Shown in pieces: positions 1,535 to 57,935 of a DNA stretch of 64,000 nucleotides. Under the pieces are notes generated by a model. The model was not told the origin of the DNA. It did not search any database and was given only the letters and a program-made list of their open reading frames with translations. The translations under genes were made by a program, and so were the position numbers. Location of the stretch: the IMG/VR virus record IMGVR_UViG_3300037264_000690, positions 30,414 through 94,413 of that record; one strand, 5' to 3'. The DNA is from a virus. Numbering within the stretch: position 1 is the stretch's first letter; every line of letters begins with the position of its first letter.

Positions 1535-3046
1535 ATGGCTAACGATGCAATGATGTCGCTGAATAAGGAGGTGGTCAGTCTCTTCGACTCGATCAAGCAA
1601 GCTGACATCCTTCCTGAAGTACAGATGCAGCCACATCAAGCACGTTTGCAGATGGAAGCGCAAGGCGAACCGTCTCGTAAGCTGCTCTATCATGCTCTTG
1701 GGTCAGGCAAGACGCTCTCGGCCCTAGGAATGGCGGAGGCTCAGCAGCAGCCGTATACTGCCATTGCACCAGCTGCCCTTCGCGCAAACTGGAAGTCGGA
1801 GATCCAGAAATTCACTGACGAGAAGACTCCGCAGCACGTCATGAGCTACTCCGAGCTGGCTCGTGGCAAACCTGTGCCATATCAGCACACAATCATCTTC
1901 GACGAGGCTCATCGGCTGCGCAACATTGGGACTGCTCAGACCAGTCAGGCCCTTCGCGCTGCAGAGAAAGCGCATCAGATTACGTTGCTATCTGGCTCGC
2001 CAGTCGTCAACGATCCACAGGATCTAGCAGTGCCGACTCGGATGCTCACCGGCCAGAAGATCAGCCCTCAGCAGTTCCGTCAGCGTTACGTTGGCGAACG
2101 GGAGGTCAGACCAGGCTTTTGGGCTCGCTTGCGTGGTGTGCCTGCTGGTCGAGAGGAAGACATCCAGAATGCTGAGGAGCTGAAGGCGTTACTCAAGGGT
2201 CGGGTTGACTACTATGCTCCGAAGTCGACGACCGTGCCAGTCAAGCACGAGGTTCATGATGTTGAAATGGGCGTTGAGCAGAGTCAGATCTATCGTGGCA
2301 TGTGGGAGAAGCTGCCGTGGCATATCCGATGGAAGCTGAAGAACGACTTCCCCATGAACTCCGAGGAACTACAGCGATCGGTCAGCTTCCTAACGGGGCC
2401 ACGGCAGGTCAGCCTGTCGCCATACCCGTATATGCGTGAAAAGAATCCGGTCAAAGCATTCCACATGTCGCCCAAGTTGATCAAGGCTCACGAGGAGATG
2501 CAGAAGCACCTCAGTCACCCGGACAAGAAGGCATTGGTCTTCAGCAACTACATCGACGCTGGGCTGACGCCGTACTCTGCCAAGTTGACAGAGCAGGGTG
2601 TACCCAATGCCCTCTTCCATGGTGGGCTCAACGACAAGCAGCGAAAAGAGCTCGTCGAGAACTTCAACACTGGCAAGATTCGTGTGGCCCTGATCGGTCC
2701 CTCTGGTAGTGAGGGCCTGTCATTTAGAGGCACCCAACTGATCCAGATGCTTGATCCGTATTGGCACCAAACCAGAACAAATCAGATGCAAGGACGTGGA
2801 CTGCGGTTCGATAGCCACACTGGTTTGCCGGAGGACCTGAAGGATGTGACTGTGCAGCAGTTCTCCTCGAAGCTACCCCTGGGCTTCAAGGATAGACTGT
2901 TGTCACGGATTGGCTTCGACCGGTCACGTCAGGCAGCTGGTGCTGATGCCTACTTGAAGGAAATGGCTGCTCGCAAGGAGAGGCTGAATCAGAAGTTCCT
3001 GAACCTCTTGAAGGAGGTTGGTTTACAGAATGGACGTGCAGCATGA
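1535..3046 (+). CDS. SF2 (SNF2-like) DEAH helicase/ATPase
   Basis: motif I YHALGSGKT, II IIFDEAH, III LLSGSP, V SEGLSF, VI QMQGRGLR. Confidence 0.9.
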   Translation: MANDAMMSLNKEVVSLFDSIKQADILPEVQMQPHQARLQMEAQGEPSRKLLYHALGSGKTLSALGMAEAQQQPYTAIAPAALRANWKSEIQKFTDEKTPQHVMSYSELARGKPVPYQHTIIFDEAHRLRNIGTAQTSQALRAAEKAHQITLLSGSPVVNDPQDLAVPTRMLTGQKISPQQFRQRYVGEREVRPGFWARLRGVPAGREEDIQNAEELKALLKGRVDYYAPKSTTVPVKHEVHDVEMGVEQSQIYRGMWEKLPWHIRWKLKNDFPMNSEELQRSVSFLTGPRQVSLSPYPYMREKNPVKAFHMSPKLIKAHEEMQKHLSHPDKKALVFSNYIDAGLTPYSAKLTEQGVPNALFHGGLNDKQRKELVENFNTGKIRVALIGPSGSEGLSFRGTQLIQMLDPYWHQTRTNQMQGRGLRFDSHTGLPEDLKDVTVQQFSSKLPLGFKDRLLSRIGFDRSRQAAGADAYLKEMAARKERLNQKFLNLLKEVGLQNGRAA

Positions 3047-11815: not shown

Positions 11816-12457
11816 ATGGCAGAGGAACAGAGAAAGATTTGCACCAGCTGCTACGTTGGTCGTCCGCTCAGTGATTTCCGGTTGAATAAGCGAGTGTTGC
11901 CATCTGGTGTCGTCCGACTGTATTATTCGAGCCCATGTCGAATCTGCCGTCGGAAGCTGGAAAAAGAGCAGCGTGGTGTAAAGGCAAAAACGATCAAGCG
12001 TGTTAATAAGCCGCAGTGTCGTAGGCAATACCAACCGGCCACGATCATTAGTACCGGTCACCGCACAAGTACCGACAAGACACATGCCCAGCACCTTCGC
12101 TGGACTTACGGTTTATCACTTGAAGACTACAACAAAATCTATGACCGGCAGCGGGGTCGCTGTGCAATTTGTCAACGTAAGCCACACCAAATACCCAGCC
12201 GGCAACGACGCCGGCTGGTTGTTGACCACGATCACACTACCGAGCAAGTTCGAGGTTTGCTGTGTCATGATTGCAATTTGGCTCTCGGTTTGTTTCGAGA
12301 TAACCCAGTGCTTATAGAAGCTGCTATGGCTTACTTGAAAGGATATTCGTGTCACTCTTCAAATTCTTCGGAGAACAAGGAGATCTGCACGGCGGGCGAC
12401 TCTTCTGGTCACGCAACTTGCCTGTTCCGTTCAAAGGCACGCATGCACCAACGTTAA
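11816..12457 (+). CDS. endonuclease VII-family (His-Me) nuclease, probable homing endonuclease
   Basis: YGLSLEDY..Q.GRCAIC..LVVDHDH..VRGLLC..CN..LG...DNP; N-terminal CxxC..CxxC. Confidence 0.85.
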   Translation: MAEEQRKICTSCYVGRPLSDFRLNKRVLPSGVVRLYYSSPCRICRRKLEKEQRGVKAKTIKRVNKPQCRRQYQPATIISTGHRTSTDKTHAQHLRWTYGLSLEDYNKIYDRQRGRCAICQRKPHQIPSRQRRRLVVDHDHTTEQVRGLLCHDCNLALGLFRDNPVLIEAAMAYLKGYSCHSSNSSENKEICTAGDSSGHATCLFRSKARMHQR

Positions 12458-12795: not shown

Positions 12796-13645
12796 AAAGA
12801 CTGCAGCTGCGTCAGATGCACCTCTAGTGCCTACCCGTGGGCTTGAACTAAATGAGGATTGGGGTCAGCATCGTAATAAGTTGCTCAAGACCTTAGCACT
12901 GCTTGGGTTGAGTAGTGCTGCTATTGGCGGTGGTATAACTGGAGGTTTCGGTCTGCATCGCTTGCATCAAATGCGTAATGAGAAGCCAGAGGCTCTGCCT
13001 GGTAATATCCCGCTCACCATGCCGCCTGGTAGGCTACCACCTAGCGATGAGCCGGAGAAGATTGCAGCCTCAGTACCGTTTGGACACTGGAAGCAGCTCA
13101 TTGGTATGACTGCACAACATCCGTCTGACATTCCACTTGGCTGGCTTGCGGCTCCGGCTGTCGGCGTCGGTGGCCTACTTGGCAGTAGCGCTCTAATGAA
13201 TCGGATTTTGCATAACAAGATGAAGAGCGTACGTAGCAACGAGCTGGCTCAGTCACAGCAAGAGTTCGACAAGGCAATGTTAGAGCAGTATGACAGTCCG
13301 CAGCTACGTAGTGAGAAGATCAGCTCGGCTCTTGACTACCTATACGATGCAGTCGAGAAGCAAGCAATTAGCTCGATTACACCTGGTGCGGTGACCTCAA
13401 CCGACAAGCAACCACTAACAGATGCTAGCAGCTCTGGTAGTGTACTTGGTCCGCTGGCGCTAGCAGCCGCACTAAGCGGTAGTTTCGGTCTGCGCGCTGG
13501 CTATCGTTGGGCGGAAGGACGCAAACCTGAAAATCTACTGCGTGATGTCATGAAGCAGAGAGCGCTTCGCCGTGCACAGGCCATGCCTGAATCGATTCAG
13601 TTCGCAGCACCAAGGCCGGCTGATGAACAGGAACTTGACGAATAA
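12707..13645 (+). CDS. putative internal head/ejection protein (KxA motifs, Gly/Ala helices)
   Basis: AGGAG RBS; EKTA, EKIA and EKQA separate three hydrophobic Gly/Ala-rich modules. Confidence 0.6.
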   Translation: MSFPLVQAVYKVRGGMLGLLGSNTHPLVSEKTAAASDAPLVPTRGLELNEDWGQHRNKLLKTLALLGLSSAAIGGGITGGFGLHRLHQMRNEKPEALPGNIPLTMPPGRLPPSDEPEKIAASVPFGHWKQLIGMTAQHPSDIPLGWLAAPAVGVGGLLGSSALMNRILHNKMKSVRSNELAQSQQEFDKAMLEQYDSPQLRSEKISSALDYLYDAVEKQAISSITPGAVTSTDKQPLTDASSSGSVLGPLALAAALSGSFGLRAGYRWAEGRKPENLLRDVMKQRALRRAQAMPESIQFAAPRPADEQELDE

Positions 13646-16600
13646 TGTTGGAGGGCACGATGCCTAGTATTGTCACCGTGGGGCCAACGCATGACTCCGT
13701 TGAGAGCAGTGCGACGGCGACCACTACTAAGCTGCCAGCACAGCCGCCGCAGCAACGGTCCATTGTAGCTGGTCCTCCACCAGCCCCGGTGACGATGCGC
13801 TCATTCGGTGACTCCGACGCTACCCGCAAAGCTATCTATGATAACGTGCTCAAAGCAGCACAAGATATTCAGCCGGTAGCCAACAACCGTTACAGTCTTG
13901 AGCTAAACGAACCGCATTGGTCCAGTGACGAAGGTGTGTCTATCAACGAACGCAAGAGAGCCATCCTTCGCGGTGAGACACTGAACCGTCGGCTGCGTGG
14001 CACCTGGCGGCTCAAGGACGTTCAAGGTAACCTTGTCAGCGAACGTCTTGCTACGGTTGCGCACGTTCCTCGCATGACTAACCAGGGCACTTTCGTCGTT
14101 AACGGTTCCGAGTACACACTTGGCCATCAGATGCGATTGCGACCTGGTGTCTTCACACGTCGTAAGGAAAATGGTGAGCTGGAGAGCCACATCAACATCA
14201 TGCCCGGTAAGGGTCTGAGCCATCACTACTTCCTGGAACCAGAGACTGGCATTTTCAAGATCCGTGTTGGCCAAGCTAATATGCCACTCGTTTCAGTTAT
14301 GAAGGCGATGGGTGCCACCGATAGCGAATTGCGTGACGCCTGGGGTGCCGAGCTACATGGTCTTAACGCACAGAAGGACGATCCTCGCGTTATGGACAAG
14401 CTCTATGCTCGACTTATCGGCAAGAAGGGTGATCCTAATGCCAGTCTGGAAGACAAGCGTCAAGCAGTTGGTAAGGCGTTTAGTGAGATGGAGCTAGACC
14501 CAGAGGTCACAAAGCGGACACTTGGTCAGCCTTATGGTCGCCTCGGTAAAGAAGTTGCCATAGCGACCACCAAGAAGCTGCTTGGTGTCAGTCGCGGTGA
14601 GGCTGACACCGACGATCGTGACGCGCTAGCTTTCCAGCACTTCATGGGACCGGAAGACCTGTTCGCTGAGCGTATTGGCCGCGACAAGCGGGTACTCAAC
14701 GAACTGCTCTGGAAGGCGACCACGCACGGCAATCTGGATAAGATGCCGACTGGCGCCTTCACCAGACATATCCACGCCGCGCTGCTGGACAGTGGGCTGG
14801 GGCAGTGCTTTGATGTTGAAACAAAGGTGCTGACCGCGCGTGGTTTCATCGCTTGGCCAGTAGTCACCGAAGACGATCTATTTGCTTGCTTGATAAACGG
14901 CAAGTTGAGCTACCACAAAGCTTACAAGCTGTTCAAGTATGAATACGATGGACAGCTATACTGTCGAACAACAAAACGGCTTGATTATTGTGTTACACCT
15001 AACCATCGTTTGTGGTGTAAGTCTAAGTTCTACTCTGATTATCAGACAGAGTTAGCTGAACAAGCACACGGCAAGACCAGAATATTCAACATCGCGCTTC
15101 CACCATATGATGGTGTTGATACGGATTTCGTGTTGCCTTCAGTTAAAACAGGTCGGTGGCAGAATGACACTGGTCCGCTAACTACGCCTGGTGACATCTG
15201 GGCTAGTTTTCTTGGTTGGTATATTAGTGAGGGTTGGGTGTCAACCGAGACGCAGCGAAACGGTAACGAGACACGGCGTATCTGTATCTCGCAGTGTCCT
15301 GTAGCGCATCCGGTGGAGCATGCCGAGATAATTCGTGTGCTGTCGCAACTACCGTGCAAGTGGAATTACAATCATAGCAACAAAACATTCTGTATCAACA
15401 ACAAGCAGTTTGTTGAAGAAGTTGCAAAGTATGGTAGTAATGCTCGGGTTAAGCGTATACCACGATACTGCTTTAGTTGGACTAATCGACGGTTGGCATT
15501 GCTGTTGGATGCCTACATGGCTGGCGACGGCAATGTTTGCAATGGACACCACAAAGCTGAAACTGTTTCTGAACAACTTGCTGAAGATTTGTCGGAAGCC
15601 TTCAATCGTCTTGGTAATGCAGTTTATATCTCAAAGCGGAAGCTAAGTGAAAAGAATCCTGCGTGGGCCGATAGCTATGTTGTTAGTGTACTGAAGACTG
15701 GCTCTACAACTGCATTTGGCCACACTTGTCACAAGCGTCACTATGTAGGTCCGGTCTACTGTGCTCATGTACCTGGAGAGCGTCTTTACATTAGCCGCAA
15801 TCGACGTAACTCCTGGAGTGCCAATAGTTTAGAAGAGATAAATCCAGCAGATGTGTTCGATCAGCAGACCCGAGTCAGCCGACTTGGCTATGGTGGCATT
15901 CCCAGTATCGACGCTGTTCCCGATGAAGCTCGTTCAGTGCAGCCAAGCCACTTGGGTTACATCGACCTGCTCCGCACCCCGGAGTCGTTCAAGGTCGGTG
16001 TCGACTCGCGTGTGAGCCACGTTGCCAAGAAGGGCAGCGACGGGCGCATCTACACGCCATTCCTGGATCCCAAGTCGGGTCAGATGGTCTATCGCAGCCC
16101 GCAGGACGTGGCTGACTTGACACTGGCCTTCCCCGGCGAGCTGCAAAAAGGCAAGCCGCTGGTCGCCGCCATTGTTGGCGGCAAGACCCGGTATGTCCCG
16201 CGCGATCAAGTTGACTTGGCCATGCCGCACGCCGAGCACTGGTTTAGCCCGATCAATAACATGGTGCCAATGAAGTCGGCCGTGAAGGGCCAACGTGCCG
16301 CCATGGCCTCCCGCTTCCTCACTCAGGCCCTGCCGATCAAGGATGCTGAGTCCCCACATGTCCGTGGTCAGGTGCCGGGTGCTGTGGGTCGATCGTTCGA
16401 GGAGCACTATGGCAATCAAGTTGGTGCAGTGTTCGGCGAGCAACAGTCTGGTCGAGTCACTAGCGTGTCGCCCGATGAGATCACCGTCAAGTACGCCGAT
16501 GGTTCGACCAAGACCCACGAGCTGTACAACAACTTCCCATACAACCGGAAGACTTACATTCACAACGAGTCGCTAGTGCAGAAGGGTGACCCAGTAAAGC

Positions 16601-19152
16601 CTGGGCAATTGCTTGCCAAGTCGAACTACACCGACCAACATGGTCACGTTGCCCTGGGCAAAAACCTACGTGTGGCTTACGTTCCGTTCCGTGGGCTTAA
16701 CTATGAGGACGCCTACGTTATCTCCGAGTCAGGTGCCAAGAAGCTCTCCTCTGAGCATATGTACCAGCACGCGATGGAGTGGGATGAGCGGCATCGCAGG
16801 GGCCTCAACAGCTTCATTAGCATCTTCCCGGGCACTTTCCAGAAGCCACAGCTCAGGGGTATGGACACCGATGGTATTGTGAAGCCTGGTACTGTACTCA
16901 AGCCTGGTGATCCGGTTGTCCTTGCCGCTCGCGAACGTGAGTTGTCGCGCAAACAGGTTCACACCTCGCATAAGGGCAGCTTCATTAACGACTCACTCAC
17001 CTGGGATCACCATGCCGAGGGTATGGTCACTGACGTTGAGAAGACCGATAAGGGCGTGACAGTCGCGGTGAAGAGCCTCAACCAGCTGCAGGTCGGCGAC
17101 AAGATGTCTGGCCGCTATGGTGATAAGGGTGTCATCGCTGACGTTATACCTGATGATCAGATGCCGCATGATGAAGAGGGAAACCCCTATGAAGTGCTGG
17201 CCAATCCGCTTGGCGTTATTAGCCGCACTAATCCAGCTCAAATGATCGAGGCTACTCTTGGCGCAATTGCTGCTAAGACAGGTAAGTATTATGCTATCGA
17301 TGACTTCTCCAATATTAAGGACTTGACTGAGTATGCCATGAAGGAGCGTGAGAAGCACGGACTTAACAACTTCGGCAAGATCTTCGACCCAACCACTAAC
17401 AAGTCCATCGACAATGTCTTCACTGGCAATCGCTTCTTCATGAAGCTGCACCATACGTCAGAATCGAAGGGACAGGGTCGCGGTCTGGGTGGTTACACTG
17501 CTGAGGGCATGCCGGCCAAGGGCGGCGTCGAGGGTAGTAAGCGGATGGCCCTCATGGATGTCAATGCGATGCTCTCGCACGGTGCTGTCGAGACGCTGCG
17601 TGACGTCAAGTTGATTCGTGGTCAGAAGAACCAGGAATACTGGTCGAACTTCATGCAGGGCAATCGGCCACCGACGCCACGTGTGCCGATCGTCTACGAG
17701 AAGTTCGTCAACTACCTCAAGGCTTCTGGCGTCAACGTCGTCCGTAAGGGCACGCAGACACACCTGATGGAGTTGACTGATAAGAACGTCGATGACATGG
17801 CTGGCGACCGTGAGCTGCAGAACGTGAAGACGGTCGACTGGAAGACTGGTTTGACCCCCATCAAGGGCGGCCTCTTCGATGAAACGCTTACCGGCGGTCA
17901 CAACGGCAACCGCTGGGCCAAGATCACTCTGCACGAGCCGATGCCCAATCCAGTCATGGAGGAGCCGATCCGTCGACTGCTAGGTTTAACCAAAGAGAAG
18001 TTCGAGAAAGTAATTGCTGGTAGTGACCAACTTGGCGGTAAGACTGGACCAGAGGCTATCCAGAGTGCTCTGGCAGGCGTCAACGTGAAGCAGGCGCTAG
18101 CTCAGTGCCAGGCAGATATTAAGTCGGGTCGGAAGACCTTGCGTGATATTGCTGTGCGGAAGCTGCAGTTCCTCAAGTCGGCAGAGATGAAGGGCATTCA
18201 CCCCAAGGATTGGATGATGACCAAAGTCCCGGTCATCCCGCCCATGTTCCGTCCAATCTCGGTCATGCAGCAAAGCGGTGGTCGGATCATTAGCGACTCC
18301 AACTACCTCTACAAGGAGCTCTTCGACGCCAACCAGGCGCTCAAGGATGTGAAGGGCGTCTCGGAGGATATCGGTGACGAGCGACTTAACCTGTATAACG
18401 CCTATCGTGGCGTCACCGGCCTGGGCGACCCCGTTCATCCTAAGCTTCAGGAGAAGAAGATTAAGGGCTTCCTGCAGCATGTCTTCGGTACTAGCCCGAA
18501 GTTCAGCACAGTGCAGCAGAAGTTGATCGGTACTACGGTCGACCTAGTTGGTCGCGCAGTGGTTGTGCCAAATCCAGACTTACACATGGATGAGGTGGGT
18601 CTTCCCGAGGCCCGCGCCTGGGAAATCTACACTCCGTTCATTGCTCGTCGGCTAGTCAAGCAGGGCGTGCCCCGTGTGCAGGCCCTGGAGCACGTCCGTA
18701 ACAAGCATGACTTGGCCAAGCGGGCAATGCTTGAAGAGATCAACGAGCGTCCAGTTATTGTGACCCGAGCGCCAACTCTGCATCGCTACGGACTCATGTC
18801 ATTCTGGCCACGATTGACAAAGGGTGAGACTCTGCAGATCAGCCCGATTGTGGTTGGTGGCTTCAACATGGACTTTGACGGTGACGCCTCGAACTATCAC
18901 GTCCCGGCTTCTGATGAAGCGCGTAATGAAGCAGTGGACAAGCTGATGCCCAGTAAAAATCTATTCAACGTTAGCCGGTTTCAGGCGCACTACCTTTTAA
19001 GGCAGGAATACATAGGAGGAGTCTACAACGCAACTGCAAAAAAGAATGATAAGCCATCGCGAGTTTTTGCTACCAAACAAGACGCCTTGCGAGCATTCTA
19101 TAATGGTAGTCTGCAGCCAGCTGATCCGATCCATATTGTAGGTGACAAATGA
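13645..19152 (+). CDS. DNA-directed RNA polymerase: beta fused to N-terminal half of beta', intein-containing (alternative start 13660)
   Basis: beta motifs TPES, GLNYEDA, GDKMSGRYGDKG, NPLGVISRTN, MKLHH; beta' motifs GGLFDE, PVIPPMFRP, RAPTLHR, catalytic NMDFDGD (18865-18885). Confidence 0.92.
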   Translation: MLEGTMPSIVTVGPTHDSVESSATATTTKLPAQPPQQRSIVAGPPPAPVTMRSFGDSDATRKAIYDNVLKAAQDIQPVANNRYSLELNEPHWSSDEGVSINERKRAILRGETLNRRLRGTWRLKDVQGNLVSERLATVAHVPRMTNQGTFVVNGSEYTLGHQMRLRPGVFTRRKENGELESHINIMPGKGLSHHYFLEPETGIFKIRVGQANMPLVSVMKAMGATDSELRDAWGAELHGLNAQKDDPRVMDKLYARLIGKKGDPNASLEDKRQAVGKAFSEMELDPEVTKRTLGQPYGRLGKEVAIATTKKLLGVSRGEADTDDRDALAFQHFMGPEDLFAERIGRDKRVLNELLWKATTHGNLDKMPTGAFTRHIHAALLDSGLGQCFDVETKVLTARGFIAWPVVTEDDLFACLINGKLSYHKAYKLFKYEYDGQLYCRTTKRLDYCVTPNHRLWCKSKFYSDYQTELAEQAHGKTRIFNIALPPYDGVDTDFVLPSVKTGRWQNDTGPLTTPGDIWASFLGWYISEGWVSTETQRNGNETRRICISQCPVAHPVEHAEIIRVLSQLPCKWNYNHSNKTFCINNKQFVEEVAKYGSNARVKRIPRYCFSWTNRRLALLLDAYMAGDGNVCNGHHKAETVSEQLAEDLSEAFNRLGNAVYISKRKLSEKNPAWADSYVVSVLKTGSTTAFGHTCHKRHYVGPVYCAHVPGERLYISRNRRNSWSANSLEEINPADVFDQQTRVSRLGYGGIPSIDAVPDEARSVQPSHLGYIDLLRTPESFKVGVDSRVSHVAKKGSDGRIYTPFLDPKSGQMVYRSPQDVADLTLAFPGELQKGKPLVAAIVGGKTRYVPRDQVDLAMPHAEHWFSPINNMVPMKSAVKGQRAAMASRFLTQALPIKDAESPHVRGQVPGAVGRSFEEHYGNQVGAVFGEQQSGRVTSVSPDEITVKYADGSTKTHELYNNFPYNRKTYIHNESLVQKGDPVKPGQLLAKSNYTDQHGHVALGKNLRVAYVPFRGLNYEDAYVISESGAKKLSSEHMYQHAMEWDERHRRGLNSFISIFPGTFQKPQLRGMDTDGIVKPGTVLKPGDPVVLAARERELSRKQVHTSHKGSFINDSLTWDHHAEGMVTDVEKTDKGVTVAVKSLNQLQVGDKMSGRYGDKGVIADVIPDDQMPHDEEGNPYEVLANPLGVISRTNPAQMIEATLGAIAAKTGKYYAIDDFSNIKDLTEYAMKEREKHGLNNFGKIFDPTTNKSIDNVFTGNRFFMKLHHTSESKGQGRGLGGYTAEGMPAKGGVEGSKRMALMDVNAMLSHGAVETLRDVKLIRGQKNQEYWSNFMQGNRPPTPRVPIVYEKFVNYLKASGVNVVRKGTQTHLMELTDKNVDDMAGDRELQNVKTVDWKTGLTPIKGGLFDETLTGGHNGNRWAKITLHEPMPNPVMEEPIRRLLGLTKEKFEKVIAGSDQLGGKTGPEAIQSALAGVNVKQALAQCQADIKSGRKTLRDIAVRKLQFLKSAEMKGIHPKDWMMTKVPVIPPMFRPISVMQQSGGRIISDSNYLYKELFDANQALKDVKGVSEDIGDERLNLYNAYRGVTGLGDPVHPKLQEKKIKGFLQHVFGTSPKFSTVQQKLIGTTVDLVGRAVVVPNPDLHMDEVGLPEARAWEIYTPFIARRLVKQGVPRVQALEHVRNKHDLAKRAMLEEINERPVIVTRAPTLHRYGLMSFWPRLTKGETLQISPIVVGGFNMDFDGDASNYHVPASDEARNEAVDKLMPSKNLFNVSRFQAHYLLRQEYIGGVYNATAKKNDKPSRVFATKQDALRAFYNGSLQPADPIHIVGDK
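14806..15825 (+). mobile_element. 340-aa intein with LAGLIDADG-type endonuclease
   Basis: GQ|CFDVETKVLT, block B VTPNH, FLGWYISEG and LLDAYMAGDG, VYCAHVP, ends SAN|S; removing it restores the beta Rif region. Confidence 0.92.
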
Positions 19153-19607
19153 CTGACCATCGTTGGAACTGGAAAGGCGGCAAGAAAGCTGGGCTTGCCA
19201 GAAAGAAAGCTGCTGGTATCTGTGTAGATTGTACAAACGAGACCAATGGCTGTGTGAAGTGCGATGCTTGCCGGCAGCGAGAAAAAGCTGGTCACAAGAA
19301 GAGGCATTCTAAACTAAAGAATGAAGTCTTCGCTGCCTATGGTGGTTACCACTGCAACTGTCCCGGTTGTGGTGAAACACGACCAAACTTCTTGCACATC
19401 GACCATGTCGACAATAACGGCGCCGAGCATCGCCGGCAGATGGGCGATCCAACTGGTGCCAACTTCTATTCATGGTTGAAGCAGCATGGCTTCCCATTAG
19501 GTTTTCAAGTTCTGTGCGCAAACTGCAACTGGGCCAAGGGTCGATATGGTAAATGTCCTCACGTCGATGAGGTCGAGAAGATTGCTAAGATTCCGTTACA
19601 CTACTAA
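19149..19607 (+). CDS. HNH endonuclease with N-terminal Cys zinc finger
   Basis: CVDC..CDAC; YGG.C..CGE....LHIDH..G..HR...Y.W....FP..FQVLCANCN. Confidence 0.8.
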   Translation: MTDHRWNWKGGKKAGLARKKAAGICVDCTNETNGCVKCDACRQREKAGHKKRHSKLKNEVFAAYGGYHCNCPGCGETRPNFLHIDHVDNNGAEHRRQMGDPTGANFYSWLKQHGFPLGFQVLCANCNWAKGRYGKCPHVDEVEKIAKIPLHY

Positions 19608-19655
19608 TGGGTGAACAATGGGTAGACTTGGCAACACACAGAAATGAGGACTGCG

Positions 19656-20159
19656 ATGGGACTCAACCAACATCTGGTAGAACTTGCTCTGGCGAAACTC
19701 GCTAACGATCCTGCTCCATCTCAGGCACTGAATCTCAGTATGACGCCTGGTTTGCCGGGAGCTCCAGGAATGAGCGGGCCGAAGGGTCCGAGAGGCCCAT
19801 TCTCGTTGGCCGGGCGTGGAGTTGATGCGCTTGGCGGAATGGCCATGAAACATCCGATGCTATCGATTAGTACGCCACTGGCTGCATACGGTGTGAAGAA
19901 GCTATACGACAAATACAACGAGCCGAGCGTCGACAAGCAAGCAAATTTGCCACCAGCTGCAACGCCTCCTGCGACCAATGCTGCACCAGTGGCCCCAGCA
20001 CCGGCCGCTCAGTTTGGCAGTGTGGAGAATGCCCCAGTGCAACAGACGGAACAACCACAGATGCAGGTAACGACCAGCCAGGGTGCCGCCAACGTGCCCA
20101 CTCCTGGTCAAGGCGCGGCCATGAAAGCTCCAGGACTCGTCAAGCCGGCCGGCAAATGA
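19656..20159 (+). CDS. putative internal head protein (Pro/Ala-rich, KxA)
   Basis: GAGGA RBS; AKLA, DKQA; low complexity. Confidence 0.6.
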   Translation: MGLNQHLVELALAKLANDPAPSQALNLSMTPGLPGAPGMSGPKGPRGPFSLAGRGVDALGGMAMKHPMLSISTPLAAYGVKKLYDKYNEPSVDKQANLPPAATPPATNAAPVAPAPAAQFGSVENAPVQQTEQPQMQVTTSQGAANVPTPGQGAAMKAPGLVKPAGK

Positions 20160-20165
20160 TAGAAT
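20157..20165 (+). promoter_or_regulatory. candidate extended -10 promoter
   Basis: TGATAGAAT; same TAGAATCA core as at 405 and 21959. Confidence 0.4.
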
Positions 20166-20207
20166 CAACGGGTGTACTCCCTGAAGCCACAAAGCAAGGA
20201 AGTCAAA

Positions 20208-21236
20208 ATGAATGGACTTAACCCAAACCTTCTAGCTGCTGCAGTCACCAGCTTGCGAGAGAAGTATGGCAGCACGAAGGCGGCGTTCGTGCCTTCTGAC
20301 GCTGCTGCTGGCGGTGGCGCCCCGCCTCCTGGTGATCCGGCTGCCGGCGGTGGTGCTCCGCCTCCACCTCCAGGTGATCCAAGCGCTGGTGGTGCTCCGC
20401 CGCCTGATCCAAGCATGGGCATGCCACCAGACGCTGGTGGTGGTGGCGCAATGCCTCCACCTCCTCCTGATCCAAGCATGGGCGGGGGCGGTGGTGCTGG
20501 CATGGCTGACCCTGCTTCCATCGCTGGACAGGTTGCCATGGGTGTCCAGCAGGGCATGGCGGCCACTGGCCTTCAGGGCAACAAAGGTGTCGGCCCCAAC
20601 GGCAAGCCTGCCGTCAAGCCCGATATCAACACCATCGCCACCGACGTATTCCAGCTGAAGAAGATGCTCTTTGCCATTATGCGTCACGCGAACATTGAGC
20701 TACCTCCAGACGTACTTGACGGTCCTAACCGCGATCCACAGACCGGTGCCCCGGCTGAGAGCCCGACTGGTGGCTCAGACGTTAGCCCTGGTGCCTCGAT
20801 GCAGCAGAGCGCTATCAAGCCAATTGAGGCAATGCAGGGTGCCTTCCCCGGCGGCGGTGGAGGCGGTGGCGGTGATATGGGTGGTATGGGCGGCGGCGCT
20901 CCGATGGGTGGAATGGGCGGTGGCATGGGCAAGCGATCGAGTGACCTTTTCACCAAGACTGTTGGTCGTGAGATCACACAGGCCATCACCGGCGATAGCG
21001 TGCTATCGAAGGCAGCGGCCGTTGCCCTCATGTTCCGTCGTCGTAACGAAACCGGCATGGACAAGGCAGGTATCGTGTCTAGCAATCCAATGACTGATTT
21101 TAGTATCGGTAAGGATGATGGCACGATTGACAAGACGATTGAAGGTATGCCAATCTCCAATTCTGCCCGTGAGAAGGCACATCGTCTTCGGAAAGTCATC
21201 CACGGTTTTACTTCACAGCAGCGTGTCCTTAGTTGA
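20208..21236 (+). CDS. Gly/Pro/Met-rich putative head/scaffold protein
   Basis: AAGGA RBS; TKAA followed by GGGAPPPxDP repeats and GGM tracts. Confidence 0.65.
   Translation: MNGLNPNLLAAAVTSLREKYGSTKAAFVPSDAAAGGGAPPPGDPAAGGGAPPPPPGDPSAGGAPPPDPSMGMPPDAGGGGAMPPPPPDPSMGGGGGAGMADPASIAGQVAMGVQQGMAATGLQGNKGVGPNGKPAVKPDINTIATDVFQLKKMLFAIMRHANIELPPDVLDGPNRDPQTGAPAESPTGGSDVSPGASMQQSAIKPIEAMQGAFPGGGGGGGGDMGGMGGGAPMGGMGGGMGKRSSDLFTKTVGREITQAITGDSVLSKAAAVALMFRRRNETGMDKAGIVSSNPMTDFSIGKDDGTIDKTIEGMPISNSAREKAHRLRKVIHGFTSQQRVLS
20302..20500 (+). repeat. imperfect coding repeats AGGGAPPPP(G)DP
   Basis: about four copies visible in DNA and protein. Confidence 0.7.
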
Positions 21237-21244
21237 GAGACATA

Positions 21245-21496
21245 ATGATCCTTCAGTTGCATGACAAACTCCAGAAGCCGCTGGTCATCAAGGCCACGCG
21301 GCTTCTGGCTACTTATGATGATGGCACTCCATTCGCGCTAATTGTGGAGGTCGTCCCTGGTCACGTTCGCGTTTTCCGTGCTGGTGACCCAGACTTTAAC
21401 GACCGACTCAGACAAGCGGCTATTGACCGTTCAGTCATCGTCGATAAGCTCGAACCAGCCAATCCCACGGCCCATCCCAGTCGTCTAATTTACTAG
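21245..21496 (+). CDS. hypothetical protein
   Basis: short ORF followed by a terminator. Confidence 0.6.
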   Translation: MILQLHDKLQKPLVIKATRLLATYDDGTPFALIVEVVPGHVRVFRAGDPDFNDRLRQAAIDRSVIVDKLEPANPTAHPSRLIY

Positions 21497-21518
21497 GCCA
21501 AACGTGTCATTATCTAAT

Positions 21519-21553
21519 AGCCAAGCGGTATACCTGCTTGGCTGTTTCTTTTT
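21519..21553 (+). terminator. intrinsic terminator
   Basis: AGCCAAGCGG-tatac-CTGCTTGGCT then GTTTCTTTTT. Confidence 0.75.
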
Positions 21554-21586
21554 CTAGCTCAAGGGTTGAAGACACAGGAGGTTAAC

Positions 21587-21961
21587 ATGAACCTTCGCAC
21601 CACACCGTTTCTAGAACTCATCAACGCGTTCATCGAGCTGGAGGGATTATCATGGGTAGAGCAGTCAATTAGAGAGGAAAGAGAGGATCGTAGTTATACG
21701 TTGCTAGGAGCACTGTCGTGGCTAAGCAGAACCAGGCATAACAGCGGCAACCATGTCAGGCAACTTCAAGAACAAGGGGATTCAAGGGACTGGCCAGTCA
21801 TCTTCTCTGAGCTGTTGCTGTATCAGGTGTATGACATCTACGGTTGTGGTGGGTGGAATCGGTATTACGTAGATGCTCATGGCGAGATCAGGTTCAGTCA
21901 CTATCACTCCATAAAAGATGATCAGATCAAAGCGGCTAAGCTGGGGTTCGATGTAAGGTAG
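21587..21961 (+). CDS. hypothetical protein
   Basis: AGGAGG RBS; GGWNRYYV motif. Confidence 0.7.
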   Translation: MNLRTTPFLELINAFIELEGLSWVEQSIREEREDRSYTLLGALSWLSRTRHNSGNHVRQLQEQGDSRDWPVIFSELLLYQVYDIYGCGGWNRYYVDAHGEIRFSHYHSIKDDQIKAAKLGFDVR

Positions 21962-21968
21962 AATCAAG

Positions 21969-22009
21969 GGTGGGCACGGTCAACCGTGCCCACCTAGTTA
22001 TTCTTTTTT
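21969..22009 (+). terminator. hairpin / probable terminator upstream of the beta' C-half gene
   Basis: GGTGGGCACGG-tcaa-CCGTGCCCACC with a delayed T-tract. Confidence 0.5.
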
Positions 22010-22013
22010 AGGT

Positions 22014-23909
22014 ATGGAAGCCATGCTCCACACAACCGCAGGTCAGCTAGCTGTTAACGAACTCCTCCCAGAGGAGATGCGTGACCATGCTCGCATCCTC
22101 GACAAGAAGGGCATCTCGCAACTCTTACAAGAGGTTGCCGAGAAGTACCCTGATAAGTACCGCGACATTGCTCATGGCTTATCCAAGGTCGGATATCATT
22201 CTGCTTATCACACTGGCGGACACAGCTTCGACTTGACGCACATGCGCACTGCTCGTGCGGCACTAACGGCCCGTCAGGAGATCGAGACCAAGATTCAGCA
22301 GATCCACGCCAACCCGCATTTGTCACCCGAGATGAAGGACAATCAGGTCATCGAGCTGGCGTTGAGCCATCATCAACCATTGACCGAGGCCATTCTGCAC
22401 GAAAGCAAGAAGGAGGGCAATCCCCTGGCCGAGCAAGTCACTGCTATCGGTCGTGGCAACCCGGTCAGTCTCAAGTCGCTGCGTGGTAGTGACCTCATGT
22501 ATGTCGACCACAAGGATCGGCCCATTCCAATCCCGATCCTTCGCAGCTACTCTGAGGGCCTGGAGCCGGTCGAATATTACGCTGGCACCTTCGGTGCTCG
22601 GAAGGGTGTCATGGACACCAAGTTCGCCACCCAGGATGCTGGTGCCCTGTCAAAGCAGTTCAACCAACTCGCCCATCGACTGGTCGTCACCAAGCACGAT
22701 CATGACGACGCGAACCATCACGCTCATCAGGGCATGCCTGTCGAGTTGGATGATCCTGATAACGAGGGTGCTCTGCTGGCTTATCCAGCAGGCGGCTATC
22801 CTCGCAATACCGTCCTGCGGCCCAAGATCCTCTCGCACTTGAAGAGTCTGGGTCTGAAGAACATAGTCGTTCGCAGCCCTATCACTACTGGTCCAATGGA
22901 CGGTGGCCTGTACGCCAGAGATGTTGGCTATCGCGAGCGTGGTGGTATTGCGCCACTTGGAGATAACATTGGCATCGCCGCCGCCCAGGCGCTTTCCGAA
23001 CCATTGGCACAAGCTCAGCTCTCGTCGAAGCACTCCGGCGGTATTGTCGGTGCGGCTAAGGGTGTCAGTGGCTTCAAGTTAATCAACCAGCTCACCCAGG
23101 TGCCTAAGACCTTCAAGGGTGGTGCTGCTCATGCCCAACTTGATGGCCGTGTTAGTGACATTGAAGTAGCGCCACAAGGCGGTAACTACATCGTCATCGG
23201 CGGCCAGCGACACTACGTTGGCACTGGTTACGACCCCAAGGTTAAGCGTGGGGATGAAGTCGAGGCTGGCGACGTGATCTCTGATGGCACTCCTAACCCA
23301 GCTGAAATTGTCAGGCATAAGGGCATCGGTGAAGGCCGTCGCTATTTCGTCGACTCCTTCCGCAATGCCTATAAGGAGTCTGGTCTGCCGCATCACCGTC
23401 GGAACATTGAAGTCATGGCTCGTGGCTTGATTGACCACGTTCGGCTAACTGAGGAGCATGGTCAGTATGTGCCAGGCGACATTGTGTCCTATAGCCGACT
23501 TGAGCATTCATATAAGCCGCGTGAGGGCAGCCTTCAGGGTGATCCGAAGCGAGCCATGAATCATTATCTGGAGAAACCAGTCCTGCACTACTCGATCGGC
23601 ACTAAGATTCGACCCAGCACTGTAAACACATTGCAGCAGTACGGCATCAAGAACGTCGTGGCTCATCCAGAGCCACCACCGTTTGAGCCGGAAATGATTC
23701 GTGGCATGGAGAACCTGAGTCATGATCCGGACTGGATGGTTCGCTTCCTTGGGTCATATCAGGAGAAGAATCTACTGCGCGGTGTTCACCGTGGAGACAT
23801 CAGTGAGGAGAAAGGCACCAGCTATGTGCCAGCACTGTCACGTGCAGTTGACTTTGGCAAGGTTGGGCCTGTGCAACCGTGGAAGCCGAGTTCGATCCTC
23901 AAGTCTTGA
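22014..23909 (+). CDS. RNA polymerase beta' C-terminal half (bridge helix, trigger loop)
   Basis: TTAG start; SYSEGL..EY....GARKG..DT bridge helix; GIAAAQALSEPLAQAQLSSKHSGG trigger loop; HRRNIEVMAR. Confidence 0.9.
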   Translation: MEAMLHTTAGQLAVNELLPEEMRDHARILDKKGISQLLQEVAEKYPDKYRDIAHGLSKVGYHSAYHTGGHSFDLTHMRTARAALTARQEIETKIQQIHANPHLSPEMKDNQVIELALSHHQPLTEAILHESKKEGNPLAEQVTAIGRGNPVSLKSLRGSDLMYVDHKDRPIPIPILRSYSEGLEPVEYYAGTFGARKGVMDTKFATQDAGALSKQFNQLAHRLVVTKHDHDDANHHAHQGMPVELDDPDNEGALLAYPAGGYPRNTVLRPKILSHLKSLGLKNIVVRSPITTGPMDGGLYARDVGYRERGGIAPLGDNIGIAAAQALSEPLAQAQLSSKHSGGIVGAAKGVSGFKLINQLTQVPKTFKGGAAHAQLDGRVSDIEVAPQGGNYIVIGGQRHYVGTGYDPKVKRGDEVEAGDVISDGTPNPAEIVRHKGIGEGRRYFVDSFRNAYKESGLPHHRRNIEVMARGLIDHVRLTEEHGQYVPGDIVSYSRLEHSYKPREGSLQGDPKRAMNHYLEKPVLHYSIGTKIRPSTVNTLQQYGIKNVVAHPEPPPFEPEMIRGMENLSHDPDWMVRFLGSYQEKNLLRGVHRGDISEEKGTSYVPALSRAVDFGKVGPVQPWKPSSILKS

Positions 23910-23934
23910 CAGACGTATATCAATGCGGCATAAT
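23906..23934 (+). promoter_or_regulatory. sigma70-type promoter driving the RNA-gene cluster
   Basis: TTGACA-17bp-CATAAT. Confidence 0.65.
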
Positions 23935-24103
23935 ACACCTAGTTCTTGGTTTCTGGTTTGGCCTGGCGGTGGGTAACGGAGTGCGGGCACCCGCCGCCAG
24001 GCACCCCTAAAATACACGTCTCATAGCGTCATTATTAAGTAGGGCCACTTATCCGGCATCGTGTCATAGTTGTTTATGACATGGGGTAGTGGTATCATTG
24101 AAT

Positions 24104-24272
24104 CAGCTCTTGGTCTAACGGCAAGACGTTCGAACCTCAACCAGCTGCGGCTAGCTCAGCCGCGATAAGCGAACCAGGTGGAGTCGAAGTAGCCCGTTTG
24201 AGCAACGGCAGTGAAAAGCCCCACCTGCAACAGAGGGTTCGGAAAATCCGGGTTCGACTCCCGGCGGGCATC
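24104..24272 (+). ncRNA. tRNA-like RNA with a 105-nt structured insert replacing the anticodon loop
   Basis: D arm GTCT-AACGGCA-AGAC, anticodon stem TTCGA/TCGGA, T arm CCGGG-TTCGACT-CCCGG; acceptor stem only 4 bp. Confidence 0.7.
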
Positions 24273-24319
24273 TTTCACTATGATGCGACACTGCAAGAAG
24301 CATGGCATGATTTGATTAC

Positions 24320-24391
24320 GGTCCCGTAGCTCAGCGGCAGAGCGATTGCCTGTTAAGCAATAGTGCCTGGGTTCGAGTCCCAGCGGGGCCT
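24320..24391 (+). tRNA. tRNA-Asn(GTT)
   Basis: full cloverleaf: GGTCCCG/CGGGGCC, D GCTC/GAGC, ATTGC-CTGTTAA-GCAAT, T CTGGG-TTCGAGT-CCCAG; CCA not encoded. Confidence 0.9.
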
Positions 24392-24413
24392 CTCATGGCG
24401 ATCTTTCGGTAAC

Positions 24414-24442
24414 AAGGCGACCGAAAGGTCGCTTTTTTTTTT
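24414..24442 (+). terminator. intrinsic terminator after the tRNA cluster
   Basis: AAGGCGACC-GAAA-GGTCGCTTT plus a long T-run. Confidence 0.9.
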
Positions 24443-24462
24443 GTTGCGCCAGGAGAATTGTC

Positions 24463-24945: not shown

Positions 24946-24954
24946 GGATGAACC

Positions 24955-25380: not shown

Positions 25381-25416
25381 GATCAGGATTGATCTTGCAA
25401 ACCAAGGAGGTGATTC

Positions 25417-25632: not shown

Positions 25633-25686
25633 TTAACACCAGCCGTCTCTTAAACTGAGCGGCAAACACTGAAAGGAAGACGCGGT

Positions 25687-57134: not shown

Positions 57135-57935
57135 ATGTCTAGCATTCTCAAGCAGGTTCCTATGACTCCGCCAGCTTCGGCTGCGCCAATCCAGGAACCA
57201 CAGACCATGTTAGAGGATGAGTTCACCGAACCATACAAGGCATGGAAGGCTGCGCCTGGACCAGCCACCATGACGCCGCTACTCAAGTCGCTCAATCCAG
57301 TGATCGACTCAGCCATGCGAACCTACGCTGGCAAGGGCAGCCCAACGTTGCGTAGCCGTGCTAAGCTAATCATGGCCGACGCGATTAACAAGTACGATCC
57401 ATCGAGGGGAAAGCTGCGGACACATCTAATGTACAACCTTCAGGGCCTTCGTCGCGCTAACGCACAGGAGAATCAGATCATTACGTTGCCAGAACGGGTA
57501 GCTATCGATCTGTATCACTTGAAGCAGCACGAGGGTAACCTTCGTGATGAGCTTGGCCGTGATCCTTCAATGAATGAGCTTGCTGATCGTAGTGGCTTAT
57601 CCAGGCGTCGCATTAGCTATATTAATAAGTCACAACCAGGATTGCCTGAAGGCATGTTGTCGTCAGAGGGTAATGCTGGTGAAGAACAGGTTGCACTGGG
57701 GCCAGCCGTTCAGCAAGCTGATGCCGAGCGTGTGTGGCATGAGTACATCTACCATGACCTGCAGCCGGCTGATCAAATTATCATGGAGCACACACTTGGC
57801 TTATTTGGTAAGCCAACGCTACCCAAGAAGCAGATTGCGGTGATGCTGGGCATATCATCTGGAGCGGTTACACAGCGAGCCGCCAAGATTCAGGAGAAGA
57901 TTGACCGTCGTGAAGAACTGAGTCCGATGACATAA
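57135..57935 (+). CDS. sigma70-family RNA polymerase sigma factor
   Basis: region 2 AINKYDPSRG.KL.TH, region 3 ELGRDPS..ELAD..G, region 4 HTH IAVMLGISSGAVTQ. Confidence 0.8.
   Translation: MSSILKQVPMTPPASAAPIQEPQTMLEDEFTEPYKAWKAAPGPATMTPLLKSLNPVIDSAMRTYAGKGSPTLRSRAKLIMADAINKYDPSRGKLRTHLMYNLQGLRRANAQENQIITLPERVAIDLYHLKQHEGNLRDELGRDPSMNELADRSGLSRRRISYINKSQPGLPEGMLSSEGNAGEEQVALGPAVQQADAERVWHEYIYHDLQPADQIIMEHTLGLFGKPTLPKKQIAVMLGISSGAVTQRAAKIQEKIDRREELSPMT

Follow-up and report, generated by a model that had tools for sequence, protein, structure and literature searches.

Bacterial RNA polymerases with fused beta and beta' subunits retain alpha, omega and the zinc sites, and the only well-studied exceptions to assembly on alpha are, to our knowledge, the very divergent enzymes of phages phiKZ and AR9, which have no sigma. 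In all cellular multisubunit polymerases, beta and beta' assemble on an alpha dimer (PMC7598289). According to the same review, the beta' split of phiKZ and AR9 coincides with that of cyanobacteria, and in the phiKZ-type enzymes, which work with no sigma, beta is also split and two paralogous sets exist, one of the virion and one not (PMC7598289). The beta::beta' fusion of Helicobacter and Wolinella is described in PMC1557499, which cites Zakharova et al. 1999. Salmonella phage Arash was published in 2023, and its annotation names gp206 simply 'beta', with a fusion unmentioned (PMC10585845).

The window analysed here, from a large phage that has not been cultured, comprises 64,000 nucleotides, positions 30,414 to 94,413 of IMG/VR virus record IMGVR_UViG_3300037264_000690, and its features are given in Table 1. 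One gene encodes both beta and the N-terminal part of beta' (chain 1); the public gene call begins at M51 (nt 13795), giving 1785 aa (P0003). Domain mapping of this chain gave the following results. First, Pfam recognises the beta domains Rpb2_3 and Rpb2_6 (2.9e-49) together with the beta' domains Rpb1_1 and Rpb1_2 (6.4e-24). Second, beta chains from the PDB align at aa 73-256 and 726-1394 (1.7e-66), with beta unsplit and the conserved Lys-rich motif of its barrel present (GDKMSGRYGDKGV, aa 1151-1163), and PDB beta' chains align at aa 1441-1833. Third, the beta' N-terminal module matches positions 155-533 of TIGR02386 (rpoC) and 181-550 of 619 of rpoC1_cyan, and the catalytic NMDFDGD lies in the same chain as beta. 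A MAFFT alignment of the junction with Salmonella, Staphylococcus and phage homologues shows the beta' zinc ribbon to be deleted, with a 32-column gap where bacteria have four cysteines. The chain terminates at IHIVGDK, 88 residues past NMDFDGD, at about residue 555 of Salmonella/E. coli beta'.

Table 1. Position of the polymerase genes and associated features in the window.
Feature	Coordinates	Strand	Basis or detail
SNF2-family helicase, homologue of Arash gp217	1535..3046	+	Pfam SNF2-rel_dom + Helicase_C; tblastn 4e-60
Fused gene: beta, intein, beta' N-terminal part	13645..19152	+	one open frame, 1835 aa
Class-1 intein with LAGLIDADG endonuclease, 340 aa (aa 388-727)	14806..15825	+	motifs; absent in L003
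beta C-terminus, KFVNYLKASGVNV (aa 1353-1365)	17701..17739	+	
Junction: KFVNYLKASGVNV, linker of ~15-35 aa, beta' GGLFD motif	17701..17898	+	MAFFT alignment
beta' N-terminal module (aa 1396-1835): clamp helices and double-psi barrel	17830..19149	+	TIGR02386, rpoC1_cyan, PDB
beta' catalytic NMDFDGD (aa 1741-1747)	18865..18885	+	
Stop codon of fused gene	19150..19152	+	
HNH endonuclease gene, free-standing	19149..19607	+	H-x-D-H...N...C-x-N-C-N motifs in translation
ORF of 171 aa	19644..20159	+	homologue in L003 only, among related loci
Gene X, Pro/Gly/Ala-rich, one conserved central helix	20172..21236	+	clustering and HMM search of gap ORFs
Gene Y, ~80 aa	21233..21496	+	clustering and HMM search of gap ORFs
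ORF of 131 aa	21566..21961	+	no homologue in any related locus
beta' C-terminal chain (chain 2, P0002), 631 aa	22014..23909	+	Pfam Rpb1_5 3.9e-21, PDB, TIGR02386
Bridge helix (P0002 aa 194-221)	22593..22676	+	
Trigger loop (P0002 aa 323-343)	22980..23042	+	
sigma70-family protein, 266 aa, orthologue of Arash virion protein gp10	57135..57935	+	tblastn, NCBIfam, PDB

The remainder of beta' is encoded by a separate gene (chain 2), whose product begins at a TTAGQ motif and aligns to PDB beta' residues 658-1171, a stretch covering TTxG, the bridge helix and the trigger loop. Its profile matches cover positions 546-783 of TIGR02386 and 5-340 of rpoC2_cyan, its first 100 aa match only actinobacterial beta' in the PDB, and it contains no cysteine, so that the second four-Cys zinc site of beta' is absent as well. 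The original prediction, namely an RNA polymerase re-partitioned into a beta plus beta'N chain and a beta'C chain apart, is upheld by this HMM domain mapping. The open frame, the Pfam matches and the PDB alignments agree with its claim that the beta C-terminus runs straight into beta' N-terminal motifs and NMDFDGD, and its placement of the bridge helix and trigger loop 2.9 kb downstream corresponds to a gap of 2861 nt holding the HNH gene and four same-strand ORFs. It had further stated that cyanobacteria split beta' nearby with TTxG placed oppositely, which is borne out by the NCBIfam boundaries. The cyanobacterial gamma profile TIGR02387 extends ~65 positions beyond the end of chain 1, and the beta'' profile TIGR02388 begins at about residue 23-27 of P0002 (rpoC2_cyan position 5 being residue 27); TTxG is therefore N-terminal of the cut in cyanobacteria and C-terminal of it here. 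The present cut lies ~25 residues, or one conserved motif (TTxG...LP), upstream of the gamma/beta'' cut and of that in phiKZ.

The same junction in one ORF, with the same cut, occurs in ~60 independent IMG/VR contigs, the longest of 235 kb, and the layout is shared by Arash (gp206 and gp216) and Vibrio phages D69, D148 and D181. In the ~60 loci the junction falls inside one tblastn HSP, the end of the fused ORF corresponds to query aa 1823-1835 (for most loci 1831-1835) and the beta'C match begins at query aa 1-9, both ends being alike in Arash and D69. Among metagenome proteins, the best 120 of 1118 clusters all span the junction, with Rpb2_6 and Rpb1_2. The combination had been predicted to be unusual, which stands in so far as we found no paper describing a fusion-plus-split layout within the searchable literature; it does not stand for the window as such, which is not unique, because a large clade of phages, sequenced isolates among them, has this architecture as its norm. 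One of the refuting observations named with the prediction, a described phage clade in which the architecture is standard, therefore applies in part.

What is new here are full fusions in distant, uncultured relatives, sister to all split forms, in which beta and the whole of beta' occupy one frame (L062, 2339 codons; L063/64/66, 2399 codons), colinear across the cut and with no extra residues. Phylogenies were obtained with two fast methods, FastTree and IQ-TREE --fast with SH-aLRT, and rooted with three bacterial sequences and one other phage, including only two full-fusion sequences. In both trees the split forms are one group (0.987 in FastTree; SH-aLRT 97.8 in IQ-TREE), with the full fusions as sister group and with bacteria and Cobetia phage Carin-5 outside. 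On this branching, a single fission of a full beta::beta' fusion is, judging from these sequences, the most likely origin of the layout. The ancestor would have carried the complete fusion, and the one fission would have fallen in a poorly conserved surface loop, around E. coli beta' 555-565. It is unlikely, yet worth weighing, that the two-chain layout is ancestral and that the single ORFs of L062 and L063 resulted from later re-fusion of beta'C, as the tree is unrooted in itself, just two full-fusion sequences were sampled, and neighbouring genes commonly fuse. Such a history would demand three events, namely cutting beta', fusing beta to beta'N and re-fusing, rather than two, and it sits poorly with the fusions branching outside the split group when bacteria are the outgroup, with their exact colinearity at the cut, and with a clade that breaks its polymerase gene elsewhere through mobile elements.

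Neither alpha nor omega had been recognised in the window. This holds for the entire 94-kb record, in which the Pfam models for alpha (PF01000, PF01193) and omega (PF01192) gave no match at E <= 1; PF01000 and PF01192 also had no match in five complete relatives, and the controls for these searches were detected in 14/14 genomes; a very divergent analogue could escape such models. Each of the five complete relatives has exactly one Rpb2_6 match. A T7-type single-subunit polymerase (PF00940) gave no match, but its control also matched nowhere.

A candidate specificity factor is encoded in the window. The sigma70-family protein is 30% identical to Arash gp10 (4e-11, tblastn), matches NCBIfam sigma models with a best value of 1.3e-9, all below cut-offs, and matches SigB in the PDB at 7.6e-6. 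A search of the genomes of complete relatives found one orthologue in each (7/7); when used alone as the query for related loci, the protein gave no match. In the model of its complex with beta'N, ipSAE was 0.67 against 0.00 for the best control, passing a mark that 58 of 80 solved complexes attained, as did 2 of 110 mismatched pairs; this pass is to be read as likeness only, because the pair resembles solved holoenzymes. At least 57% of contacts were common between runs, the partner pLDDT was at least 70, and the modelled interface joins beta'N 143-190 (P0001 aa 1538-1585, the clamp helices) to sigma 42-81. The model places the protein on the beta' clamp helices, and the protein is the probable specificity factor of the two-chain polymerase. 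The SNF2 helicase gene in relatives adjoins the polymerase genes or lies between them, being within the gap in L034/35/37/38.

Taken jointly, we consider it probable that the locus encodes a two-polypeptide phage RNA polymerase core, derived by fission of a full fusion, that uses its own sigma and is packed in the virion. Chain 1 contains all of beta, a short linker, and the beta' clamp helices and Mg-binding barrel, and would be functional only once the intein is spliced out; chain 2 supplies the remaining beta', with the bridge helix and trigger loop as well as the cleft and jaw. The chains would assemble non-covalently, with no RNA or protein splicing joining them, into an enzyme without alpha or omega of its own and with both beta' zinc sites lost, in which the covalent beta-beta' tether plausibly replaces the alpha-dimer assembly platform. 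Promoters would most likely be recognised by the phage sigma seated, as modelled, on the clamp helices of chain 1. Homology with Arash makes it probable that the enzyme travels in the capsid and is injected, starting transcription without the host polymerase, and it probably transcribes the whole genome, because complete relatives have this as their only RNAP-like gene set. Among the proteins of the Arash virion, gp206 leads with 3516 spectra and gp216 ranks fifth with 1210, and the proteome also includes sigma gp10 and helicase gp217 (PMC10585845). Virion packaging is known for Arash alone, whose polymerase is ~30% identical.

The phage chains could instead replace host beta and beta' and assemble on the host alpha dimer, perhaps with omega, a hybrid that we regard as rather improbable. 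It would account for the lack of a phage alpha or omega and for the need of all cellular polymerases for an alpha platform (PMC7598289), and the phage chains are far nearer to bacterial beta and beta' (E 1e-66) than phiKZ-type enzymes are. The Arash virion proteome, as far as the available table goes, contains gp206, gp216 and sigma gp10 and no alpha (PMC10585845); since it names phage gene products only, it would not show a host alpha. Nevertheless, the hybrid would need to be packed in the capsid together with host alpha, the phiKZ and AR9 polymerases function without alpha (PMC7598289), and the covalent beta-beta' link would remove much of the need for a platform. It is tempting to speculate, although we would not yet wager on it, that beta::beta'N, beta'C and the phage sigma make up a self-sufficient three-protein holoenzyme that is carried in the capsid and enters the cell with the DNA; with the tether in place of the platform, it would need neither alpha nor omega.

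Genes X and Y, found between the polymerase genes in 54 and 56, respectively, of the 59 related loci having a gap, could be extra polymerase subunits; in a bolder extension, they would be new polymerase-associated or capsid-targeting subunits. The AlphaFold2 model of gene Y has five strands and one helix (pLDDT 84.7), and a Foldseek comparison with the PDB gave no match at E <= 0.001 and no tie to alpha or omega. Neither X and Y nor the HNH gene and other gap ORFs matched Pfam, PHROGs or NCBIfam, and X and Y yielded no usable lead in the ESM Atlas. The start codon of the HNH gene and the TGA stop of the fused gene overlap as ATGA, and the HNH gene is probably mobile, with homologues among related loci only in L040, at the same position, and in L004, elsewhere.

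Chain 1 is itself interrupted by an intein, which opens with CFDVET, contains TPNH as block B along with two LAGLIDADG-like motifs, and closes with WSAN, S being the next residue, just before the SLEEINP (fork-loop / Rif-cluster I) motif of beta. The Pfam LAGLIDADG_3 match is weak, and the penultimate residue in this intein family is Ala or Gly rather than His. Locus L003, 83% identical, lacks exactly these 340 residues, and no other intein occupies this site among 66 loci and 119 protein clusters; those of L004 and L010-12 were considered and ruled out, their sites being equivalent to aa 753 and 780. The intein was not among the observations of the original prediction. Elsewhere in the clade, other elements break the polymerase gene: a split intein in L045/47/48, at a site equivalent to aa 1297-1301, and, in Vibrio phage D181, a group I intron (Rfam, 100.7 bits) together with an endonuclease gene. 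At the gathering threshold, Rfam gave no intron for the interrupted polymerase genes of L045/47/48 and L030.

Given that relatives use such devices, the two halves might be rejoined into one polypeptide or mRNA, through a large intron, trans-splicing split inteins or recoding, but this is highly improbable. Positions 13000-26000 have no Rfam intron match at E <= 0.1, and the translations and alignment reveal no intein halves at the end of chain 1 or the start of P0002, there being no intein blocks at either place and only ~7 residues more than in the full fusion. Moreover, two protein genes lie in the gap and are conserved across 54-56 of 59 loci, and in Arash the gap genes are mostly on the opposite strand.

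Finally, although the window is a single metagenome contig, estimated to be 46% complete, the chance that the apparent layout stems from a mis-assembled junction or from a nonsense mutation of recent date is close to nil, and the assembly error at junction or stop that had been named as refuting the prediction is excluded: the identical layout in ~60 independent contigs and four isolates and a second assembly of the probable source run, covering 17617-22841 with zero differences, already refute it, both halves are conserved at 26-83% identity, and the Arash table gives 100% coverage for gp206 and 89% for gp216 (PMC10585845). Contigs from RNA libraries of a second sediment study are 99% identical to pieces of the locus; they are not counted as evidence of expression because none bridges the junction or stop and DNA carry-over is possible.

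Together, these observations describe a polymerase that is clearly alignable to bacterial enzymes and has a recognisable sigma, yet is without alpha, omega and zinc sites, with its chains cut unlike those of any cellular lineage. Because the clade is abundant in metagenomes and has cultured isolates, namely Arash (on Salmonella Typhimurium) and Vibrio phages D69, D148 and D181, minimal assembly, sigma action on a tethered core and capsid packaging are directly testable. The sister full-fusion lineage offers a rare chance to infer in which order the two largest polymerase subunits were fused and split. If the three-protein holoenzyme were true, it would be the simplest known sigma-dependent RNA polymerase of cellular type, and the clade would amount to a natural experiment in which a catalytic core is re-cut at will, by full fusion, fission, inteins, a split intein and an intron.

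Several known systems share parts of this architecture. The 'fractured genes' of Dassa et al. 2009, among whose listed genes RNA polymerase does not figure (PMC2677866), may be likened to the split intein of L045/47/48 and to the HNH gene at the cut of the window; unlike them, the beta'N/beta'C cut has no intein remnants. In the fusions of Helicobacter, Wolinella and Wolbachia (NF007172, NF011417), the beta C-terminus is in frame with the beta' N-terminus, as in the window, but they carry the whole of beta', as L062 and L063 do, whereas here beta'C is a separate gene; the window scores 135.9 bits against these families, with a cut-off of 5372. In the gamma (RpoC1) and beta'' (RpoC2) of cyanobacteria and plastids, and in phiKZ/AR9, beta' is cut soon after the Mg-binding barrel, as here, which places the bridge helix and trigger loop on the other chain. 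Nevertheless, cyanobacterial gamma is a free subunit whereas beta'N is fused to beta, and the gamma/beta'' boundary is unmatched, the rpoC1_cyan match ending at 550 of 619 with the cut ~25 residues upstream. The window also differs from phiKZ/AR9 in having a whole beta, a sigma70-family gene and, in its complete relatives, one Rpb2_6 match per genome. Cobetia phage Carin-5 and the metagenomic mReC lineage (PMC7481178) likewise have phage-borne beta and beta' that can still be aligned with those of bacteria, and a sigma gene close by; in Carin-5, beta (1083 aa) and beta' (927 aa) are separate and unsplit, sigma lies upstream, and the beta' zinc ribbon, deleted in the window, is retained, in a phage that branches outside the fused clade. 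The nearest likeness is with Arash (gp206, 1525 aa; gp216, 606 aa; OQ632216) and Vibrio phages D69, D148 and D181. Their polymerases are only ~30% identical to that of the window, gp206 has no intein, and genes X and Y, of the window's subgroup, were not detected in them, but they agree with it in layout, junction and cut, in having one polymerase set per genome and no alpha or omega, and, in Arash, in orthologues of the sigma (gp10) and the SNF2 helicase (gp217).

The original prediction described a chain in which beta runs into the N-terminal part of beta' and the catalytic NMDFDGD motif, with the bridge helix and trigger loop in a gene 2.9 kb downstream, past an HNH gene and four others. 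All of these sequence statements were confirmed by open reading frame, domain, motif and gap results obtained on the window, which is the final 64 kb of a 94,413-bp IMG/VR virus contig (46% complete by CheckV). First, the fused chain carries the Pfam beta domains Rpb2_3 and Rpb2_6 (2.9e-49) together with the beta' domains Rpb1_1 and Rpb1_2 (6.4e-24); solved bacterial beta chains align to its residues 73-256 and 726-1394, and solved beta' chains to residues 1441-1833, with the beta C-terminus motif at nt 17701-17739 and NMDFDGD at nt 18865-18885. Second, the beta'C chain aligns with beta' over a region that starts at the TTxG motif and takes in the bridge helix (aa 194-221) and the trigger loop (aa 323-343). 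Third, the 2861-nt gap between both genes holds five same-strand ORFs, the first being the HNH gene. The first 50 codons of the fused ORF (13645-13794) are Pro/Thr/Ala-rich, and the public gene call begins at M51; the upstream start may nevertheless be real, as L003, an 83%-identical relative, matches these codons from residue 2 onwards at 76% identity.

Features of the window and of related loci (L-numbers) discussed in the text
Feature	Position	Strand	Remarks
SNF2 helicase	1535-3046	+	Homologue of Arash gp217
562-aa ORF	3417-5105		LigD-type 3'-phosphoesterase domain and ATP-dependent DNA ligase (Pfam 8.4e-13, 8.9e-7)
HNH-family gene, 449 aa	8083-9432		Free-standing, near polymerase; phrog_1314, 2.9e-49
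Endonuclease VII-like gene	11816-12457		Free-standing, near polymerase; Pfam 8.3e-23
Fused gene	13645-19152	+	Single open frame, 1835 codons
LAGLIDADG intein	14806-15825		340 aa (aa 388-727 of fused chain), inside beta
HNH endonuclease gene	19149-19607	+	Free-standing; ATG overlaps stop codon of fused gene
Gene family X	20172-21236	+	Pro/Gly-rich, one conserved helix; between polymerase genes in 54/59 related loci
Gene family Y	21233-21496	+	About 80 aa, small, beta-rich; between polymerase genes in 56/59 related loci
beta'C chain	22014-23909	+	631 aa; Pfam Rpb1_5
tRNA, standard	24320-24391		Rfam 68.9 bits; just downstream of beta'C
Sigma70-family protein, divergent	57135-57935	+	NCBIfam sigma models down to 1.3e-9; PDB SigB 7.6e-6
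Split intein spans	L045:9100-9990; L047:7600-9990; L048:9200-9990
Group I intron and homing endonuclease gene, Vibrio phage D181 (OZ196140)	L081:4479-5390		Intron RF00028, 100.7 bits
Second group I intron, D181	L081:682-889

The junction and the stop are not assembly errors. The region 17617-22841 was reproduced with zero differences in another assembly of the probable source run, which is not an independent sample but rules out a one-off assembly join. An IMG/VR scan using the fused chain from the junction to its end yielded 66 loci, on contigs of up to 235 kb. In about 60 of these a single HSP and a single ORF contain the beta-to-beta' junction, the fused frame stops at query aa 1823-1835 (most at 1831-1835), and the beta'C match starts at query aa 1-9, 0.6-6.4 kb downstream. 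A tblastn search of a phage collection showed that isolates share this arrangement: in Salmonella phage Arash, gp206 (1525 aa) and gp216 (606 aa) are separated by 4.7 kb, and Vibrio phages D69, D148 and D181 have the pair as well. The junction region is also matched by 1118 clusters (E <= 1e-5) of a 5.8-billion-protein collection; all of the best 120 cover the junction fully and contain both Rpb2_6 and Rpb1_2, and their names, if any, are nearly always 'RNA polymerase subunit beta', with a few mislabels. Separately, short contigs in sediment metatranscriptome libraries of another study match pieces of window 14587-22967 at identities of at least 99%, which shows that this phage, or one almost identical to it, occurs elsewhere too, the source being RNA or carried-over DNA.

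In a MAFFT alignment of 24 concatenated sequences, the GGLFD motif of beta' comes roughly 15-35 residues after the beta C-terminus (which corresponds to the end of E. coli beta). The 32 columns of the four-Cys zinc ribbon are deleted across the whole clade, and are present in bacteria and Cobetia phage Carin-5; the second beta' zinc site is also gone, because chain 2 is entirely free of cysteine. The cut falls at about 555 to 566 in Salmonella/E. coli beta' numbering, inside a stretch of variable length. Since the end of the fused chain reaches only position 550 of the 619 of the cyanobacterial gamma model (NCBIfam rpoC1_cyan), and the beta'' model (rpoC2_cyan) begins around residue 23-27 of chain 2, cyanobacteria cut beta' further downstream, by one conserved motif, in agreement with the predicted difference between them. 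The beta' cut of phiKZ and AR9 coincides with the cyanobacterial one (review PMC7598289). At the conserved beta'N/beta'C cut, Rfam detected no intron signal in the window and no intein remnants were found, so on sequence grounds the two chains are almost certainly separate proteins.

The origin of this layout may be traced through four distant loci (L062 and L063/64/66), about 31-35% identical to the window, in which beta and the entire beta' occupy a single frame of 2339 codons (L062) or 2399 codons (L063/64/66, intein included). These align colinearly across the cut position with zero extra residues. In trees from about 1900 trimmed columns, obtained with FastTree (LG+gamma) and IQ-TREE (LG+G4, SH-aLRT), the split forms, including Arash and D69, constitute one group (support 0.987 and 97.8, respectively); in both, two full fusions are sister to the split forms, and three bacteria and Carin-5, with separate, unsplit genes, fall outside. 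Fusion followed by a single fission would therefore be the simplest history, as far as few outgroups and fast tree methods allow. These same limits leave some room for the reverse order, namely, an ancestral split layout from which the full fusions arose by later re-fusion, but the topology makes this unlikely.

The intein within beta, which the original prediction does not mention, has Cys as its first residue, a TPNH block B, two LAGLIDADG-like motifs and a terminal Asn followed by Ser, the residue before this Asn being Ala or Gly in its family, not His; it directly precedes the SLEEINP motif (fork-loop / Rif-cluster I). L003 lacks exactly aa 388-727 of the fused chain, and no intein was found at site 388 elsewhere among 66 related loci and 119 related protein clusters. 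Apart from this intein, whose site is so far unique, the window is an ordinary member of its clade. In relatives, inteins occupy positions corresponding to window aa 753, 780, 969, ~1155-1195 and 1301, and also occur in beta'C. In three loci (L045, L047 and L048) the fused gene is broken at the equivalent of window aa 1297-1301 by a naturally split intein, whose N-half (Cys1 and block B) ends the upstream ORF and whose C-half, ending Asn-Ser, opens the downstream one; a 638-aa ORF separates the halves in L047, and L054 has a contiguous intein at this site. The arrangement is similar to the 'fractured genes' of PMC2677866, among which RNA polymerase is not included. In D181 an intron and endonuclease gene interrupt the fused gene, which is uninterrupted there in its close relative D69; in the D181 record each exon is listed as a hypothetical protein of its own. 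Homologues of the HNH gene that follows the fused gene occur in just two loci, in L040 at the same position and in L004 at another, which fits a mobile gene. The polymerase gene of this clade is a playground for mobile elements. Neither family X nor family Y was detected in Arash, in D69 or in the loci with a full fusion, and family, Atlas and fold searches returned no function for them; both may be polymerase-associated or virion proteins.

The predicted lack of a recognisable alpha or omega subunit was extended to the whole 94,413-bp record and five complete relatives, where models gave zero matches, with positive controls in 14/14 reference genomes; Rpb2_6 has exactly one match per complete relative. 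The sigma-like ORF is matched across regions 2-3, more weakly in region 4, with every score below curated cut-offs, and is the orthologue of Arash gp10, with one orthologue in each of seven complete relatives. The complex of this sigma and the beta'N module was modelled with a score of 0.67, a mark attained by 58/80 solved complexes and 2/110 mismatched pairs, and the best of three controls scored 0.00; at least 57% of contacts were common between runs, and partner pLDDT was at least 70. The modelled interface joins sigma 42-81 to beta'N 143-190 (P0001, the fused chain, aa 1538-1585), the clamp helices. Since sigma region 2 binding to the beta' clamp helices is a textbook contact, this pass may reflect likeness to solved holoenzymes, and binding is predicted for this copy. 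The SNF2 helicase adjoins or sits between the polymerase genes in relatives. In the Arash virion proteome, gp206 has the most spectra (3516), with 1210 for gp216, 1148 for gp217 and 467 for sigma gp10 (PMC10585845). The window genes would therefore probably encode a virion-carried, sigma-dependent polymerase without alpha, with two catalytic chains; we infer packaging in the virion, independence from host alpha and a tether role.

Each part has known counterparts, in multisubunit polymerases of phages, in fusions of beta to beta', and in beta' chains cut after the catalytic barrel. The arrangement also occurs in phage isolates (Arash, D69, D148 and D181), and no paper describing the fusion-plus-split combination was found in the literature searched; the Arash paper annotates gp206 simply as 'beta' (PMC10585845). 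Helicobacter and Wolinella have beta::beta' fusions (PMC1557499). The window differs from them in its cut beta', in having lost both zinc sites, and in the lack of alpha and omega. Cyanobacteria and phiKZ likewise cut beta' after the catalytic barrel, and the window differs by its fusion and shifted cut; Carin-5 has separate, unsplit genes and the zinc ribbon, whereas the window clade is fused and split, with the ribbon deleted. The layout is widespread, and cultured phages offer a way to test it; its combination of fusion with a shifted cut, two lost zinc sites, no alpha or omega, and a retained sigma differs from each of these known kinds.
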